From a virus, in the IMG/VR virus record IMGVR_UViG_3300045988_141197: 64,000 bases of DNA; one strand, written 5' to 3'. The translations under genes and the position numbers were made by a program. The notes under the pieces are model-generated. The model was not told where the DNA came from, did not search any database, and saw only the letters and a list, made by a program, of their open reading frames with translations. Every line of letters begins with the position of its first letter. Positions within the stretch are counted from its first letter, which is position 1. Shown piece by piece: positions 26,280 through 35,091 of the stretch.

Positions 26280-26481
26280 TGAAATCTGTCCTGTTTGTAA
26301 AGGTACTGGAATATATAAAGAATATTATGATTATGTTAATACTACTGGAGCTTTTTCACAAAGAACTTGTCATGGTTGTCTAGGTAAGGGTTGGATAGTT
26401 ATAGAAGATTCTTCAAGTCCTTATAGACATCCTGATCAAGGACCTGAAATATTATATAATCAAGAAAGGAGCTTTAAATGA
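26269..26481 (+). CDS. DnaJ-type CxxCxGxG zinc-finger protein
   Basis: CPVCKGTG and CHGCLGKG motifs. Confidence 0.55.
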   Translation: MKHSEICPVCKGTGIYKEYYDYVNTTGAFSQRTCHGCLGKGWIVIEDSSSPYRHPDQGPEILYNQERSFK

Positions 26482-26999
26482 AGAAGACAATAGTTTTTGA
26501 TTTTGATGGTGTAATTCATAAATATAGTAAAGGTTGGCAAGATGGCTCTATTTATGATAAACCTAATGAAAACATTAAAGAAACAATTAAAAAGTTAAGA
26601 GCAAATAATTATGAAGTGGTAGTAGTCTCTACAAGATGCTCTACAGAAGAAGGAATTGATGCTATTCGTAATTGGTTATTTGATAATGGTATAGTAGTAG
26701 ATAAAGTCTGTAAAGAGAAACCTCCAGCTTTAGTTTATATTGATGATAGAGCTATTTGTTATGATCCCAATTCATCTACATTATATGATCAAATTATAAA
26801 CTTTGAACCTTATCAAAAAAGTTTAAAGAAATATGAAGAAATGAATGAATTAGAATTACTTGGCTATTTATCTATACAGAATAAATTATTTCAAGAAGTT
26901 AACGATCAATTAGAAGCTAAATATCCAGCTAAAGATAATCCTATTATATCTATTAAAATAATGGACGACTGGATTAAGGCTATACAGAAATATCTATAG
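26478..26999 (+). CDS. HAD-superfamily hydrolase (nucleotidase-like)
   Basis: N-terminal FDFDGVI (DxDG motif I). Confidence 0.6.
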   Translation: MKKTIVFDFDGVIHKYSKGWQDGSIYDKPNENIKETIKKLRANNYEVVVVSTRCSTEEGIDAIRNWLFDNGIVVDKVCKEKPPALVYIDDRAICYDPNSSTLYDQIINFEPYQKSLKKYEEMNELELLGYLSIQNKLFQEVNDQLEAKYPAKDNPIISIKIMDDWIKAIQKYL

Positions 27000-30259: not shown

Positions 30260-30416
30260 CTGAAAGAAGATAATTAGATTTAAGGTAATTGCAAGCCTTT
30301 AAGCAAACCTATTAATAATAATTGTGAGACTGGCCAGATATAGTCAATTTGAAATAGGAATAAAGATACCAAATATATTATCTTCTTTCTTCATTAATAA
30401 TTTGGAGGTAGAATAT

Positions 30417-30656
30417 ATGACATATACAGAATGGTTAGATAAAAATTGGGAAAAAGATAATATGTTTCCACCTTGTTTAGAACCTCAAGAAGCTTTATCA
30501 TTTTTAGAAAAATATTTATTAGGAGAAGATTATTATATAGTTAATCCTATGCCTAATATTCAAGCAAATTGTGAAGTTGTCCATGATATATTATATAAAT
30601 ATTCTAGAAAATATAGAAAAGAAGTAAAAGAAAGAAATAAAATAAGAAAGAAATAA
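30417..30656 (+). CDS. hypothetical protein
   Basis: ATG at 30417 after RBS ggaggtag. The ORF track extends the frame back to 30324. Confidence 0.4.
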   Translation: MTYTEWLDKNWEKDNMFPPCLEPQEALSFLEKYLLGEDYYIVNPMPNIQANCEVVHDILYKYSRKYRKEVKERNKIRKK

Positions 30657-31267: not shown

Positions 31268-32737
31268 ATGATAACCTTAATCATTGTTGTAGCAGTGATT
31301 ATAATTCTTACAATATTCTTATTTATGAGCTATGTTAAATGTCCACCAGATATGGTTTATTTAATATCAGGTCTAAAGAAAGAACCTAGAGTTATAATAG
31401 GAAAAGCTGCTTTAAGAGTTCCATTTTTTGAAAGAGTGGATAAACTAACTCTTGAGTTAATACAAATAGATGTAAAAACGTCAAGAGTACCTACAGCTGA
31501 TTTCATTAATGTAGATGTAGATGCTGTAGCAAATGTTAGAATTCCTAACAATCCTGAATTAATACAAGTTGCAGCTAGACATTTTTTGAATCAAGATTCA
31601 AATTATATAGCTAGAAATGTACAACAAGTATTAGAAGGAAATATGAGGGAAATAATTGGACAAATGAATTTAAAAGAATTAGTTAATAATAAACAATTAT
31701 TTTCTCAAAAAATTCAAGAAAATGCAAAAGATGATATCAATAATATAGGATTAGAAATTGTTAACTTAAATGTTCAAAGCTGTACTGATGAAAATAATGC
31801 TATAAATGATTTAGGTATAGATAATTTATCTAAAATCCAAAAAGATGCAAAAATTGCAAAAGCTGAAGCTGATAGAGATGTTCAAGTTGCACAAGCTAAA
31901 GCGGCTAAAGAAGGAAATGAAGCTGATGCACAAGCTAAAGCTGAAATAGCAAAACAAAATAAAGATTTAGCTTTAAAACAATATGAGTATCAAATTGAAC
32001 AAGATAAGAAAAAAGCTGAAGCTGATACAATATATGAAATCCAAAAAGCTGAGAGACAAAAACTAATTAATGAAAATACAGTACTTGCAGAAGTTGCTAA
32101 AACTGAAAAAGAAACTGAATTAAAAGAAAAACAAGTTGCTTTAAGAGAAAAACAATTAGATGCAGAAGTTAGAAAAACAGCTGATGCGGAAAAATATAAA
32201 GCTGAAGTAGAAGCTGAAGCTCAAAAGCAAGTAACAATACAAAGAGCTCAAGCTGAATTAGAAAAAGCTAAACAAGAGGCTCAAGCTAAGATAGAAATCG
32301 CAAAAGCTAATAAAGAAGCAGCAACTCTAGAGGCTGAAGCAATTAAAGCAAAAGCATTAGCTGAAGCTGAAGGAATAAAAGCTAAATTAGAAGCTGAAGC
32401 TGCTGGTATAGAAGCAAAAGGTATAGCAGAAGCAAAAGGTATTGAAAAGAAGGCTGAAGCTCAAGCAAAAATGCAACAAGCATCAGTAGTAGAAATGATT
32501 ATTAATAAATTACCTGATATTGCTAAAGAAGTATCAACTCCTTTATCTAATATTGATAGTATTACAATGTATGGTGATCAATCAACCCAACTTGTGGAAA
32601 ACAATACACAAAAAATTGATAAAATTTTAAAAGTAGCTCAAGATAGTTTAGGTATTGATTTAAAATCAATAATTGCAGGTTATGCTGTTGGTAAATTAGG
32701 TAATAATCAAAAAGATAATAATAAAGAAGAAGAATAA
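31268..32737 (+). CDS. floT: flotillin (FloT/YuaG-type SPFH domain protein)
   Basis: N-terminal transmembrane segment and SPFH domain. Ala/Glu/Lys-rich coiled coil with AEAEA repeats. C-terminal LPDIAKEVSTPLSNIDSITMYG matches the FloT LP..AK....PLSNIDKITV motif. Confidence 0.85.
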   Translation: MITLIIVVAVIIILTIFLFMSYVKCPPDMVYLISGLKKEPRVIIGKAALRVPFFERVDKLTLELIQIDVKTSRVPTADFINVDVDAVANVRIPNNPELIQVAARHFLNQDSNYIARNVQQVLEGNMREIIGQMNLKELVNNKQLFSQKIQENAKDDINNIGLEIVNLNVQSCTDENNAINDLGIDNLSKIQKDAKIAKAEADRDVQVAQAKAAKEGNEADAQAKAEIAKQNKDLALKQYEYQIEQDKKKAEADTIYEIQKAERQKLINENTVLAEVAKTEKETELKEKQVALREKQLDAEVRKTADAEKYKAEVEAEAQKQVTIQRAQAELEKAKQEAQAKIEIAKANKEAATLEAEAIKAKALAEAEGIKAKLEAEAAGIEAKGIAEAKGIEKKAEAQAKMQQASVVEMIINKLPDIAKEVSTPLSNIDSITMYGDQSTQLVENNTQKIDKILKVAQDSLGIDLKSIIAGYAVGKLGNNQKDNNKEEE

Positions 32738-32768
32738 AATTTAGTGGGTGAAACTCCCGCTACTATAT

Positions 32769-32844
32769 TGAGGTATAGCCAAGCGGTAAGGCAATGGGTT
32801 TTGATCCCATGATTTCCTAAGTTCGAATCTTAGTACCCCAACCA
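32769..32844 (+). tRNA. tRNA-Gln (anticodon TTG)
   Basis: Very similar to Firmicute tRNA-Gln (tagccaagcggtaaggca D-arm). Anticodon stem atggg/cccat with loop ttttgat. T-arm ctaag-ttcgaat-cttag. One A-C mismatch in the acceptor stem. Confidence 0.65.
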
Positions 32845-32848
32845 ATAT

Positions 32849-33219
32849 AGTTCCTTAGCTCAGTAGGTTAGAGCGCTGTGTTTTTAAATTATTAAGAGGA
32901 ATAAAGTATGTTTAAATGTATATGTAATAGAGAGTTTTTAACACAAAATGGTCTTAATAGTCATAAAGGTAAATGTTCTGTTGTAAAACCTGATTTTATA
33001 CTTGATGATATATACATTGAAATAAAAGGTTACTTTACTGAAAAAGATAAAGCTAAAATTGACCAATTTCCTTATAAGATAAAAGTATTATTTAAGGAAG
33101 ATATGAAATTATATTTAGATTATGTGAAATCTAAATATGGTAAAACATTTTATAATTTATATACACCTAAAACTTTAATAATTTAAAATCAATTGGTTCG
33201 ATTCCAATAGGAACTACCA
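32849..33219 (+). tRNA. split / interrupted tRNA gene (5' half 32849-~32886, 3' half ~33187-33219)
   Basis: The 5' segment agttcct-ta-gctc-agtaggtta-gagc has a perfect acceptor strand and D-arm. The 3' segment attgg-ttcgatt-ccaat-aggaact-a-cca has a perfect T-arm and a complementary acceptor strand. The two are separated by ~310 bp containing ORF 32908-33186. No matching 3' anticodon-stem strand was found. Confidence 0.45.
32908..33186 (+). CDS. small Zn-finger protein inserted in split tRNA, possible (D/E)xK nuclease
   Basis: C-x-C...H-x4-C N-terminus followed by LDDIYIEIKGY (D...E-I-K motif). RBS aagagg upstream. Confidence 0.4.
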   Translation: MFKCICNREFLTQNGLNSHKGKCSVVKPDFILDDIYIEIKGYFTEKDKAKIDQFPYKIKVLFKEDMKLYLDYVKSKYGKTFYNLYTPKTLII

Positions 33220-33341
33220 GAGGCTGGGTAGCTCCCAGATATGCGCGAGTATAAAGACGAGGCACCTCCGTTGAAAATAAAATTAAAACCTCGTACATTA
33301 TAATAGTGCTTTAACTGATTATTATAAAAGGAGATATTACA

Positions 33342-33704
33342 ATGGATAAATTTGCATTTGATTGGTTTCAAAAACAACTAGATAAAAGAAAAGAACCTAA
33401 AAAGTATTTATTATGGATAGATGATTTAAGACCTATACCAAATCATTATATTGATAATTATCATATAGTTACAGCTAGATCTTATAATGAAGCTATCCAT
33501 GAATTACATAGATTTAGATATAATATAATTTGTTTAGATCATGATTTGGGAGAAGAAAAAACAGGATATGATGTTTGTAAATACATTATAGAAAATAATA
33601 TCCCTTGTGATGAATATAGAATTCATACAAGTAATCCTGTTGGTAGAAAGAATATGACTGATCTTTTATCAAGATATACAAATGCTATTATAAGACAATG
33701 TTAA
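33342..33704 (+). CDS. CheY-like receiver-fold protein (atypical)
   Basis: LLWIDD acidic pair, LDHDLG putative phospho-acceptor Asp, HTSNP, K. Confidence 0.3.
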   Translation: MDKFAFDWFQKQLDKRKEPKKYLLWIDDLRPIPNHYIDNYHIVTARSYNEAIHELHRFRYNIICLDHDLGEEKTGYDVCKYIIENNIPCDEYRIHTSNPVGRKNMTDLLSRYTNAIIRQC

Positions 33705-34283: not shown

Positions 34284-34353
34284 GGTCATATAGTTTAATG
34301 GTAAAACATACTACGTAATGTAGATAGATAATGGTTCGATTCCATTAAGACCT
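34284..34353 (+). pseudogene. tRNA-like element / degenerate tRNA
   Basis: Good D-arm (gttt-aatggta-aaac) and T-arm (aatgg-ttcgatt-ccatt). The anticodon region folds only as ctac-gtaat-gtag with a 5-nt loop, and the acceptor stem has a mismatch. Confidence 0.3.
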
Positions 34354-35002: not shown

Positions 35003-35091
35003 GTCAAGATGGGTGAGTTGGTTTAAACCAGTTGTCTACTAAACAACCGAAGTGTAAGCTTCCGTGAGTTCGAATCTCACTCTTGACGCCA
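35003..35091 (+). tRNA. type-II tRNA, Ser-like, anticodon ACT (unusual A34)
   Basis: Acceptor gtcaaga/tcttgac, anticodon stem gttgt/acaac with loop ctactaa, long variable arm, T-arm gtgag-ttcgaat-ctcac. CCA is encoded. Confidence 0.55.

Follow-up and report, generated by a model that had tools for sequence, protein, structure and literature searches.

A phage tRNA gene probably destroyed by an intron-less homing endonuclease gene, itself now decayed

In a stretch of viral DNA of 64,000 nucleotides (nt) from the IMG/VR virus record IMGVR_UViG_3300045988_141197 (hereafter the window), positions 32849-33219 hold the two ends of a transfer RNA (tRNA) gene, separated by an open reading frame (ORF) of 92 amino acids (aa). 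We consider it likely that this tRNA gene was destroyed by an intron-less homing endonuclease gene (HEG), which in turn has decayed in this genome. An earlier sequence-only reading of the element had left two possibilities: a tRNA gene disrupted by a small mobile insertion with a putative nuclease, or a non-canonical intron whose processing regenerates the tRNA. The first of these is the one borne out here, by a nuclease family specific to tRNA arrays and by the presence or absence of the nuclease gene among near-identical genomes; the second is weighed below.

We examined the two tRNA pieces base by base (Table 1). Their acceptor strands are complementary at all seven positions (7/7), which confirms to the base the earlier description of a perfect 5' portion and a perfect 3' portion with exactly matching acceptors. 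The 5' portion is identical in L002-L006, L140, L141, L144 and L145, and differs in L143 and L148, where position 26 changes from G to A. Compared with a canonical tRNA (a complete cloverleaf with normal spacing), the split gene has the acceptor stem, the D arm and the T arm and lacks the 3' strand of the anticodon stem: inspection of the sequence found no complement of CTGTG at the required place, just as the sequence-only reading had remarked. Default ARAGORN made no call on the split tRNA, nor did the Rfam tRNA model at its gathering score, which gave a partial match on the 5' part (16.4 bits vs a cutoff of 29). ARAGORN in intron mode linked both parts across exactly 32849-33219, on a poor model. 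A custom scan for orphan 5' halves and orphan 3' halves, covering both strands of the 64-kb window (128 kb), returned this pair and only two poor candidates. The two pieces derive from one gene. As for the identity of the lost tRNA, the phage tRNAs that share AGTTCCT...AGGAACT-A are mostly tRNA-Val(UAC/GAC), with some tRNA-Ile, and by its acceptor family the lost tRNA was probably tRNA-Val(UAC); a literal reading of the heptamer after CTGTG would give the anticodon UUU, that is, tRNA-Lys.

The ORF between the two pieces has a good Shine-Dalgarno sequence upstream and its own ATG, and contains both the CxC...H...C pattern and PDFILDDIYIEIKG, in agreement with the earlier description of its position and of its zinc-finger-like and (D/E)xK-like motifs. 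It matches phrog_945 'endonuclease' with an E-value of 1e-4. A word-indexed homologue search gave nothing, and relatives came only from an exhaustive HMMER search. The best relative, P0001, is a protein of 222 aa whose two ends are matched by residues 1-28 and 29-92 of the ORF, and in other gut metagenomes it is encoded between the same two tRNA pieces (L004-L006, L140, L141, L143-L145 and L148). When the 390 bp between two copies of the repeat ACCTGATT were taken out of the L141 allele, which is 761 nt long (1618-2378), the result was the 371-bp element of the window with 0 mismatches. It was this exact string reconstruction that resolved the deletion, the gap having been misplaced in a MAFFT alignment. 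The 92-aa ORF thus arises from the 222-aa gene by an exact in-frame deletion of 390 bp, and the zero-mismatch reconstruction at the ACCTGATT repeats argues that the window allele is a very recent derivative, apparently formed by microhomology-mediated deletion. Still present in the remnant are a C2H2-like zinc finger at the N terminus, the PD...ExK half and the helices of the C terminus; the NUMOD3-like region and the SSWE helix that bears the first catalytic Glu (E124) are missing. Since these DNA-binding motifs and E124 are gone, the remnant is probably inactive as a site-specific nuclease. The putative nuclease of the sequence-only reading is supported as regards the family, which is of the homing-endonuclease type, but not as regards the window copy, an internally deleted and probably inactive remnant.

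The exhaustive HMMER search returned 887 relatives (cluster representatives) at E<=1e-3, and 655 were found at E<=1e-10 in a separate protein search. In an alignment of 22 sequences, residues E124, P158-D159-F160 and E168-x-K170 were invariant, and the conserved domain comprises ~110 residues. This domain matched the Pfam family Phage_endo_I (PF05367) with E-values of 5.7e-6 to 4.4e-3, all below the gathering score, and its profile matched solved T7 endonuclease I chains with an E-value of 6e-5. NUMOD3 motifs were found in members of the family (E 4e-8 in P0003), as were N-terminal zinc fingers. An AlphaFold model had a predicted local distance difference test score (pLDDT) above 90 over the nuclease domain, and a Foldseek comparison of this model with the PDB gave weak matches (best E 0.03, none <=0.001), whose top scorers were mostly nucleases, e.g. 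Bax1. Pfam scans of six family members and of the window ORF gave no GIY-YIG match. As judged from these motifs and profile matches, the family combines a zinc finger and NUMOD3-type motifs with a T7-endonuclease-I-like PD-(D/E)xK domain that has an invariant E...PD...ExK signature; the full-length allele of the locus carries all of these. The literature searched contained no description of this endonuclease family or of endonuclease-split phage tRNA genes, and the family is apparently uncharacterised.

The genomic habitat of the family was examined in 80 loci taken from IMG/VR. The results showed tRNA genes within 2 kb in 78 of the 80 loci, nearly always on the same strand, and in 45/80 a complete tRNA, most often tRNA-Ser, begins -40 to +10 nt from the endonuclease stop codon. 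A free-standing homologue also lies in a tRNA array of Lak megaphages. In a test of 86 loci for split halves, a tRNA 5' half upstream together with a T arm and a 7/7-complementary acceptor downstream was found in 7/86, compared with 0/205 position-shifted controls. The split architecture occurs in six independent lineages, namely the window/L004 lineage, L061, L070, L096, L007 and L259. L070 has neither an anticodon arm nor a variable arm left, and a second tRNA, a complete tRNA-Ser, comes next. The 'insert' of L061 comprises the gene plus a whole tRNA-Ser and that of L096 the gene plus a tRNA-Pro; because they contain whole tRNA genes, these are not simple introns. The complete tRNA(CAU) of L007 and L259 has a 3' strand that also matches an orphan 5' half upstream, which suggests that the cassette carries a replacement tRNA segment. 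This tRNA(CAU) has a conserved unpaired variable region of 17-18 nt (..AATAAATGC.AGT). Overall, the other split arrangements fit a selfish cassette invading tRNA genes, not splicing.

Alleles of the locus were then compared between the Band_7 gene and the cREC gene. The presence/absence polymorphism that marks a homing endonuclease gene was found, in that genomes carry the 222-aa gene, the 92-aa remnant or neither (Table 1). The comparison with related phages proposed in the sequence-only reading thus yielded alleles with the full gene, without the gene and with a chimeric tRNA, and no uninterrupted copy. Association with the target gene and rearrangement of the flanks, a further mark of such genes, were seen as well, in the array, abutting-tRNA and split-half counts given above and in the chimera of L142. 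There, a tRNA-Cys(GCA) body of the kind found in L008 and L009 passes, inside the T-arm sequence that both have in common, into the AGGAACT-ACCA end of the split tRNA, and the resulting acceptor stem has two mismatched positions; the tRNA-Cys of L008 and L009 and the 3' piece have identical T arms. The chimera looks like a recombination product between T arms. Presence/absence alleles and T-arm chimeras of this kind are the traces to be expected from homing and from break-induced recombination among tRNA genes.

Taken as a sequence of events, destruction by an HEG would begin during co-infection, when the full-length enzyme would cut the tRNA gene (or the array) of an HEG-less phage. Repair would then copy the HEG in, with the tRNA halves and the neighbouring tRNAs serving as homology arms, and the interruption would protect the target from re-cutting. 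The tRNA, now without an anticodon arm, would be non-functional. Later slippage between the two ACCTGATT repeats would have removed residues ~29-158, including the DNA-binding motifs and the first catalytic Glu, and the end state would be an immobile 92-aa remnant. The arrangement of L007 and L259 points to an alternative, two-step origin, in which an HEG carrying a 3' replacement tRNA would insert first, and a deletion reaching from the end of the nuclease domain into the variable region of the replacement tRNA would then give the same picture.

Several points weigh against this account. For one, the cleavage and homing on which it depends are predictions made from the sequence of the family. 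The 92-aa remnant is in frame and is present in six contigs from different samples, and a residual function is possible for it. Preservation is perfect in both tRNA halves and in the encoded CCA, and the insert is closed by a helix of 16/17 bp, which could reflect selection on RNA structure rather than a neutral scar; this conservation carries little information, because all available copies are nearly identical. Moreover, no uninterrupted allele was found with the exact 5' and 3' patterns in IMG/VR, with a degenerate 5' pattern in metagenomes or with the 3' pattern in GTDB genomes, and a gapped whole-tRNA pattern found no intact copy of the same lineage in IMG/VR. Since none of these collections contained an intact allele, both the site that was targeted and the state of the gene before insertion are inferred.

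A different view of the preserved pieces is that the tRNA-like shell (acceptor, D and T arms plus the closing helix) is kept to serve the endonuclease gene, which we regard as unlikely. The services proposed for it are possible ones, namely processing by RNase P and RNase Z that frees the mRNA from the transcript of the array, paired ends that protect the mRNA, and translational control via the helix. In the minimum-free-energy fold of 32849-33219 (z -2.7), the acceptor, D and T arms form and a long A-U helix replaces the anticodon arm; its arms, an inverted repeat that brackets the insert, pair at 16 of 17 positions beside the ribosome-binding site. In the account that we prefer, this inverted repeat most likely forms an RNA helix that partly hides the ribosome-binding site. 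Restraining translation by a helix is a common device of phage homing endonuclease genes, and such hiding would match it by analogy. The fold favours a shell, but covariation is absent, the copies being nearly identical, and the junctions of L007, L259 and L070 show no such inverted repeat. L070, with a distant member of the family, does have a shell without an anticodon arm, and the ORFs of the family mostly lie against the end of a tRNA or run into it (by 17 nt at the start of the tRNA in L007 and L259); about 79/86 family members, however, have no such shell, the CCA is mutated to CTA in L140, L144 and L145, and a recent insertion would leave the same shell anyway. A broader version, in which the family homes into the anticodon or variable region, sometimes with its own replacement tRNA segment, and the leftover shell acts as an mRNA control device, seems to us doubtful too. 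If the family were specialised in this way to life inside tRNA genes, the split tRNA would be a functional 'tRNA-embedded mRNA', not merely a scar.

That the insert is a true intron, self-splicing or removed by a protein, and that its removal gives a working tRNA, appears very improbable. Group I introns are known in bacterial tRNA anticodon loops and bulge-helix-bulge introns in archaea, and the insert does lie in the anticodon-loop region, the classical intron site, with a long helix that brings both junctions together and with an adjoining cREC_REC gene and a weak PNKP-phosphatase-like upstream ORF that hint at RNA-repair chemistry. However, when 32700-33400 was searched with 4227 Rfam models and permissive filters, nothing matched a group I intron, a group II intron or any other ribozyme at E<=10, and the insert contains only 20 nt before the ORF and 5 nt after it. 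Together with the missing 3' strand of the anticodon stem, these findings speak against the regenerating intron that the sequence-only reading had offered as its alternative. A deletion of 390 nt within the insert has been tolerated, no single excision yields a canonical anticodon arm with normal spacing, and the related split cases enclose whole tRNA genes (L061, L096) or are without an anticodon arm altogether (L070). The only intron model that ARAGORN builds is a poor one, with a 4-bp stem GTGT/ACAC, the anticodon UUA (for a stop codon) and a 24-nt unpaired variable region, a 'variable arm' that shares its sequence with the ORF's last ten codons. When the element was spliced by brute force at 35 x 67 end points, ARAGORN called 860 variants as tRNAs with >40 different anticodons. 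Given the strong acceptor, D and T arms and the acceptance of 860 arbitrary variants, its call is therefore uninformative here and carries no weight. The suppressor tRNA(UUA) with an intron that ARAGORN proposes was rejected on account of its poor model, the standard code of the window and these arbitrary splice variants. A group I or group II intron was rejected on the grounds that no ribozyme model matches and that excision does not restore the exon. Transfer-messenger RNA (tmRNA) was rejected as well, since neither ARAGORN nor Rfam found one in the window and the ORF has its own ribosome-binding site and ATG.

Finally, it is hardly credible that the pieces are unrelated tRNA fragments joined by array rearrangement with a coincidental acceptor match, a case that the sequence-only reading had itself raised: although the locus is a recombination hot spot and L142 has a tRNA-Cys body fused to the same 3' end, with a T arm identical to that of the tRNA-Cys of L008/L009, a 7/7 Watson-Crick match at the exact positions would arise by chance about once in 16,000 trials, none was seen in the 205 position-shifted controls, the half-tRNA scan found essentially this pair, and the acceptor stem AGTTCCT/AGGAACT with A73 recurs naturally in tRNA-Val and tRNA-Ile of phages.

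The window has 27% G+C, a densely coded + strand and the standard code. Its phage genes include those of a T4-type prohead protease, dockerin-bearing proteins, an anti-Thoeris Tad8 homologue and an SPFH/Band_7 protein, and identical or near-identical DNA was found in human-gut-type metagenome assemblies, in contigs of up to ~200 kb. The tRNA array spans 27.8-35.2 kb of the window, with eight tRNAs called by ARAGORN and a ninth, at 34284-34353, from Rfam. This ninth tRNA (37.4 bits in Rfam, no ARAGORN call) has an anticodon arm that looks irregular. The tRNA-Ser at 35003-35091 carries the unusual anticodon ACT (A34), and its counterpart in L144 and L145 reads GCT. Homologues of the cREC protein stand beside tRNA arrays in other phages too (L008-L058). 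A 541-aa ORF at 21620-23245 matches the Pfam family DUF7487 (E 4.8e-8), which is also weakly matched by the endonuclease relative P0002; with this ORF, the phage may encode a second relative of the nuclease family.

Directly 3' of the CCA of the split tRNA lies a G+C-rich structured element (33220-33310), in which a CTGGG-TAGCT-CCCAG hairpin is followed by ACGAGG...CCTCGT. In sister genomes this element stands 3' of a tRNA-Leu (L139) or of the chimeric tRNA-Cys (L142), and since it follows differing tRNAs it forms a module of its own. Rfam gives no match for it, no covariation supports its structure, and its derivation from a tRNA-Leu was rejected, the alignment score being no better than that of shuffles. 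The same C-to-T change is present in both nearby CCAG copies of L140 (1553-1590), L144 and L145; it turns the CCA of the tRNA into CTA and the CCCAG of the hairpin into CCTAG, which still pairs through G-U. A 275-aa ORF without a Pfam match (L139, L140 and L143-L148; about 1681-2508 in L140), which lies after the G+C-rich element and before the cREC gene, is present in some alleles and absent in others, and is another indel-polymorphic gene at this hot spot.

Other interrupted tRNA genes were observed in the related loci. In L033-L037 (2079-2510) and L045 (1957-2388), a class I tRNA gene has an ORF-less insert of ~355 nt in its anticodon loop, with all parts of the tRNA present, including both strands of the anticodon stem (ACAGC/GCTGT). 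The position of this insert and the exon ends fit a tRNA-Arg(UCU) with a group-I-like intron, for which Rfam gave no intron match at E<=10. More interrupted tRNA genes, including tRNA-Leu(UAA)-like ones, have inserts of 450-830 nt with small ORFs (Table 1), and Rfam called a group I intron in none of them. Interrupted tRNA genes appear to be common in these gut phage arrays.

Table 1 Features of the split tRNA gene and its insert, with neighbouring genes, related loci and alleles
Feature	Genome or locus	Position	Strand	Remark
tRNA 5' portion	window	32849-32887	+	acceptor 5' strand, D arm, position 26, anticodon-stem 5' strand, loop-like heptamer
Acceptor 5' strand AGTTCCT	window	32849-32855	+	read from sequence
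TA	window	32856-32857	+	read from sequence
D stem GCTC	window	32858-32861	+
D loop AGTAGGTTA	window	32862-32870	+
D stem GAGC	window	32871-32874	+
G26	window	32875	+	read from sequence
CTGTG	window	32876-32880	+	anticodon-stem 5' strand
TTTTTAA	window	32881-32887	+	seven loop-like bases
Inverted repeat, 5' arm TGTTTTTAAATTATTAA (17 nt)	window	32879-32895	+	from repeat search; ends next to ribosome-binding site
Ribosome-binding site AAGAGGA of the ORF	window	32894-32900	+	partly inside closing helix
92-aa ORF	window	32908-33186	+	remnant of 222-aa homing-endonuclease-type gene; TAA stop
Deletion junction	window	32988-32995	+	sole remaining copy of 8-bp direct repeat ACCTGATT
Inverted repeat, 3' arm TTAATAATTTAAAATCA	window	33175-33191	+	last three codons, stop, 5 nt before T stem
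tRNA 3' portion	window	33187-33219	+	variable-loop remnant, T arm, acceptor 3' strand, A73, encoded CCA
AATCA	window	33187-33191	+	variable-loop remnant
T stem ATTGG	window	33192-33196	+
T loop TTCGATT	window	33197-33203	+
T stem CCAAT	window	33204-33208	+
Acceptor 3' strand AGGAACT	window	33209-33215	+
A73	window	33216	+
CCA	window	33217-33219	+
Cyclic-phosphate-processing receiver domain protein (cREC_REC)	window	33342-33704		E 1.7e-24; adjoins array
Anti-Thoeris Tad8 homologue	window	30324-30656		E 2.8e-23; near array
PNKP-phosphatase-like HAD protein	window	26478-26999		weak match; upstream of split tRNA
Closest P0001 relative	L007	38-1117		last five codons of ORF overlap first 17 nt of complete tRNA(CAU)
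Closest P0001 relative	L259	1416-2490		last five codons of ORF overlap first 17 nt of complete tRNA(CAU)
Interrupted tRNA	L014, L017, L019, L022, L029	about 4474-5378 in L014
Interrupted tRNAs	L012	4778-5300, 5370-6079
Interrupted tRNA	L013	5160-5856
Interrupted tRNA	L028	4558-5254
Allele: tRNA-Gln, then split tRNA with 222-aa gene	L004, L141, L140 and others
Allele: tRNA-Gln, then split tRNA with 92-aa remnant	window, L002, L003
Allele: split tRNA arrangement plus extra 275-aa ORF
Allele: no endonuclease; different tRNA-Gln and tRNA-Leu(UAA)	L139, L146
Allele: no endonuclease; chimeric tRNA	L142	2303-2379

Phage tRNA arrays are now seen as a counter-defence against tRNA-cleaving bacterial immunity, and SegB-type endonucleases reshape them (PMC13096335). 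The family described here would be a second, unrelated nuclease family that apparently reshapes such arrays, and it is tied to tRNA genes even more tightly than SegB. Its alleles form a natural footprint series, from an intact HEG in a split tRNA through a decayed HEG to HEG-less alleles and a chimeric tRNA. Standard tRNA finders miss split genes of this kind, and intron mode mis-calls them as a 'suppressor tRNA with intron', which could mislead the annotation of stop-codon recoding in phages. In addition, the family offers candidate site-specific nucleases that would be aimed at conserved tRNA gene sequence.

Among known enzymes, the family resembles T7 endonuclease I (PF05367) in its catalytic core motif and in the local sequence YxPDF...(I/V)E(I/T)KG. 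However, T7 endonuclease I, a structure-specific junction resolvase, has neither zinc-finger nor NUMOD3 modules, the Pfam matches lie below the gathering cutoff and the fold match is weak. An intron-less HEG inside a gene is also known from Aeromonas phage Aeh1, where mobE is said (Friedrich et al. 2007, PNAS) to split nrdA into two collinear pieces, the two polypeptides of NrdA reportedly reassembling into an active enzyme. The locus described here has likewise been left as two collinear pieces, but a tRNA without half of its anticodon stem cannot decode. I-Ssp6803I is a PD-(D/E)xK-type homing endonuclease in the intron of a Synechocystis tRNA-fMet gene, and the present gene shares with it both the nuclease type, as predicted, and the tie to an interrupted tRNA gene. 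In systems of that type a self-splicing ribozyme restores the tRNA, whereas here no ribozyme is detectable and the anticodon stem is not restorable. Group I introns in tRNA genes are among the matters reviewed in PMC13011429. As in tmRNA and in the split or intron-bearing tRNAs of archaea, a tRNA-like shell encloses other sequence or the halves are encoded apart. Unlike the reading frame of tmRNA, the present ORF starts with an ATG behind a ribosome-binding site of its own, and its product is a nuclease remnant instead of a tag peptide; unlike in archaeal split tRNAs, no bulge-helix-bulge is evident in sequence or fold, splicing-endonuclease genes having lain outside the search.

The closest parallel is SegB of phage T4, a GIY-YIG endonuclease encoded in the T4 tRNA cluster, which recognises the T-psi-C motif of tRNA genes, cuts the tRNA genes of phages without SegB and is inherited preferentially together with the flanking tRNAs (PMC2330249). 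SegB homologues show a statistical association with tRNAs, and by amplifying tRNA genes they can evade tRNA-cleaving defence (PMC13096335). Like SegB, the gene studied here appears to be a selfish endonuclease gene in a phage tRNA array, and its alleles and the T-arm chimera are the footprints expected of one. Unlike SegB, it belongs to a T7-endonuclease-I-like PD-(D/E)xK family with a zinc finger, known from sequence, and instead of lying between tRNA genes it sits, here and at five other loci, inside a tRNA gene that it splits. By analogy, the gene would be SegB-like in its mode of action without being a member of the SegB family, and its novelty would lie in the class of the nuclease and in its insertion inside a tRNA gene.

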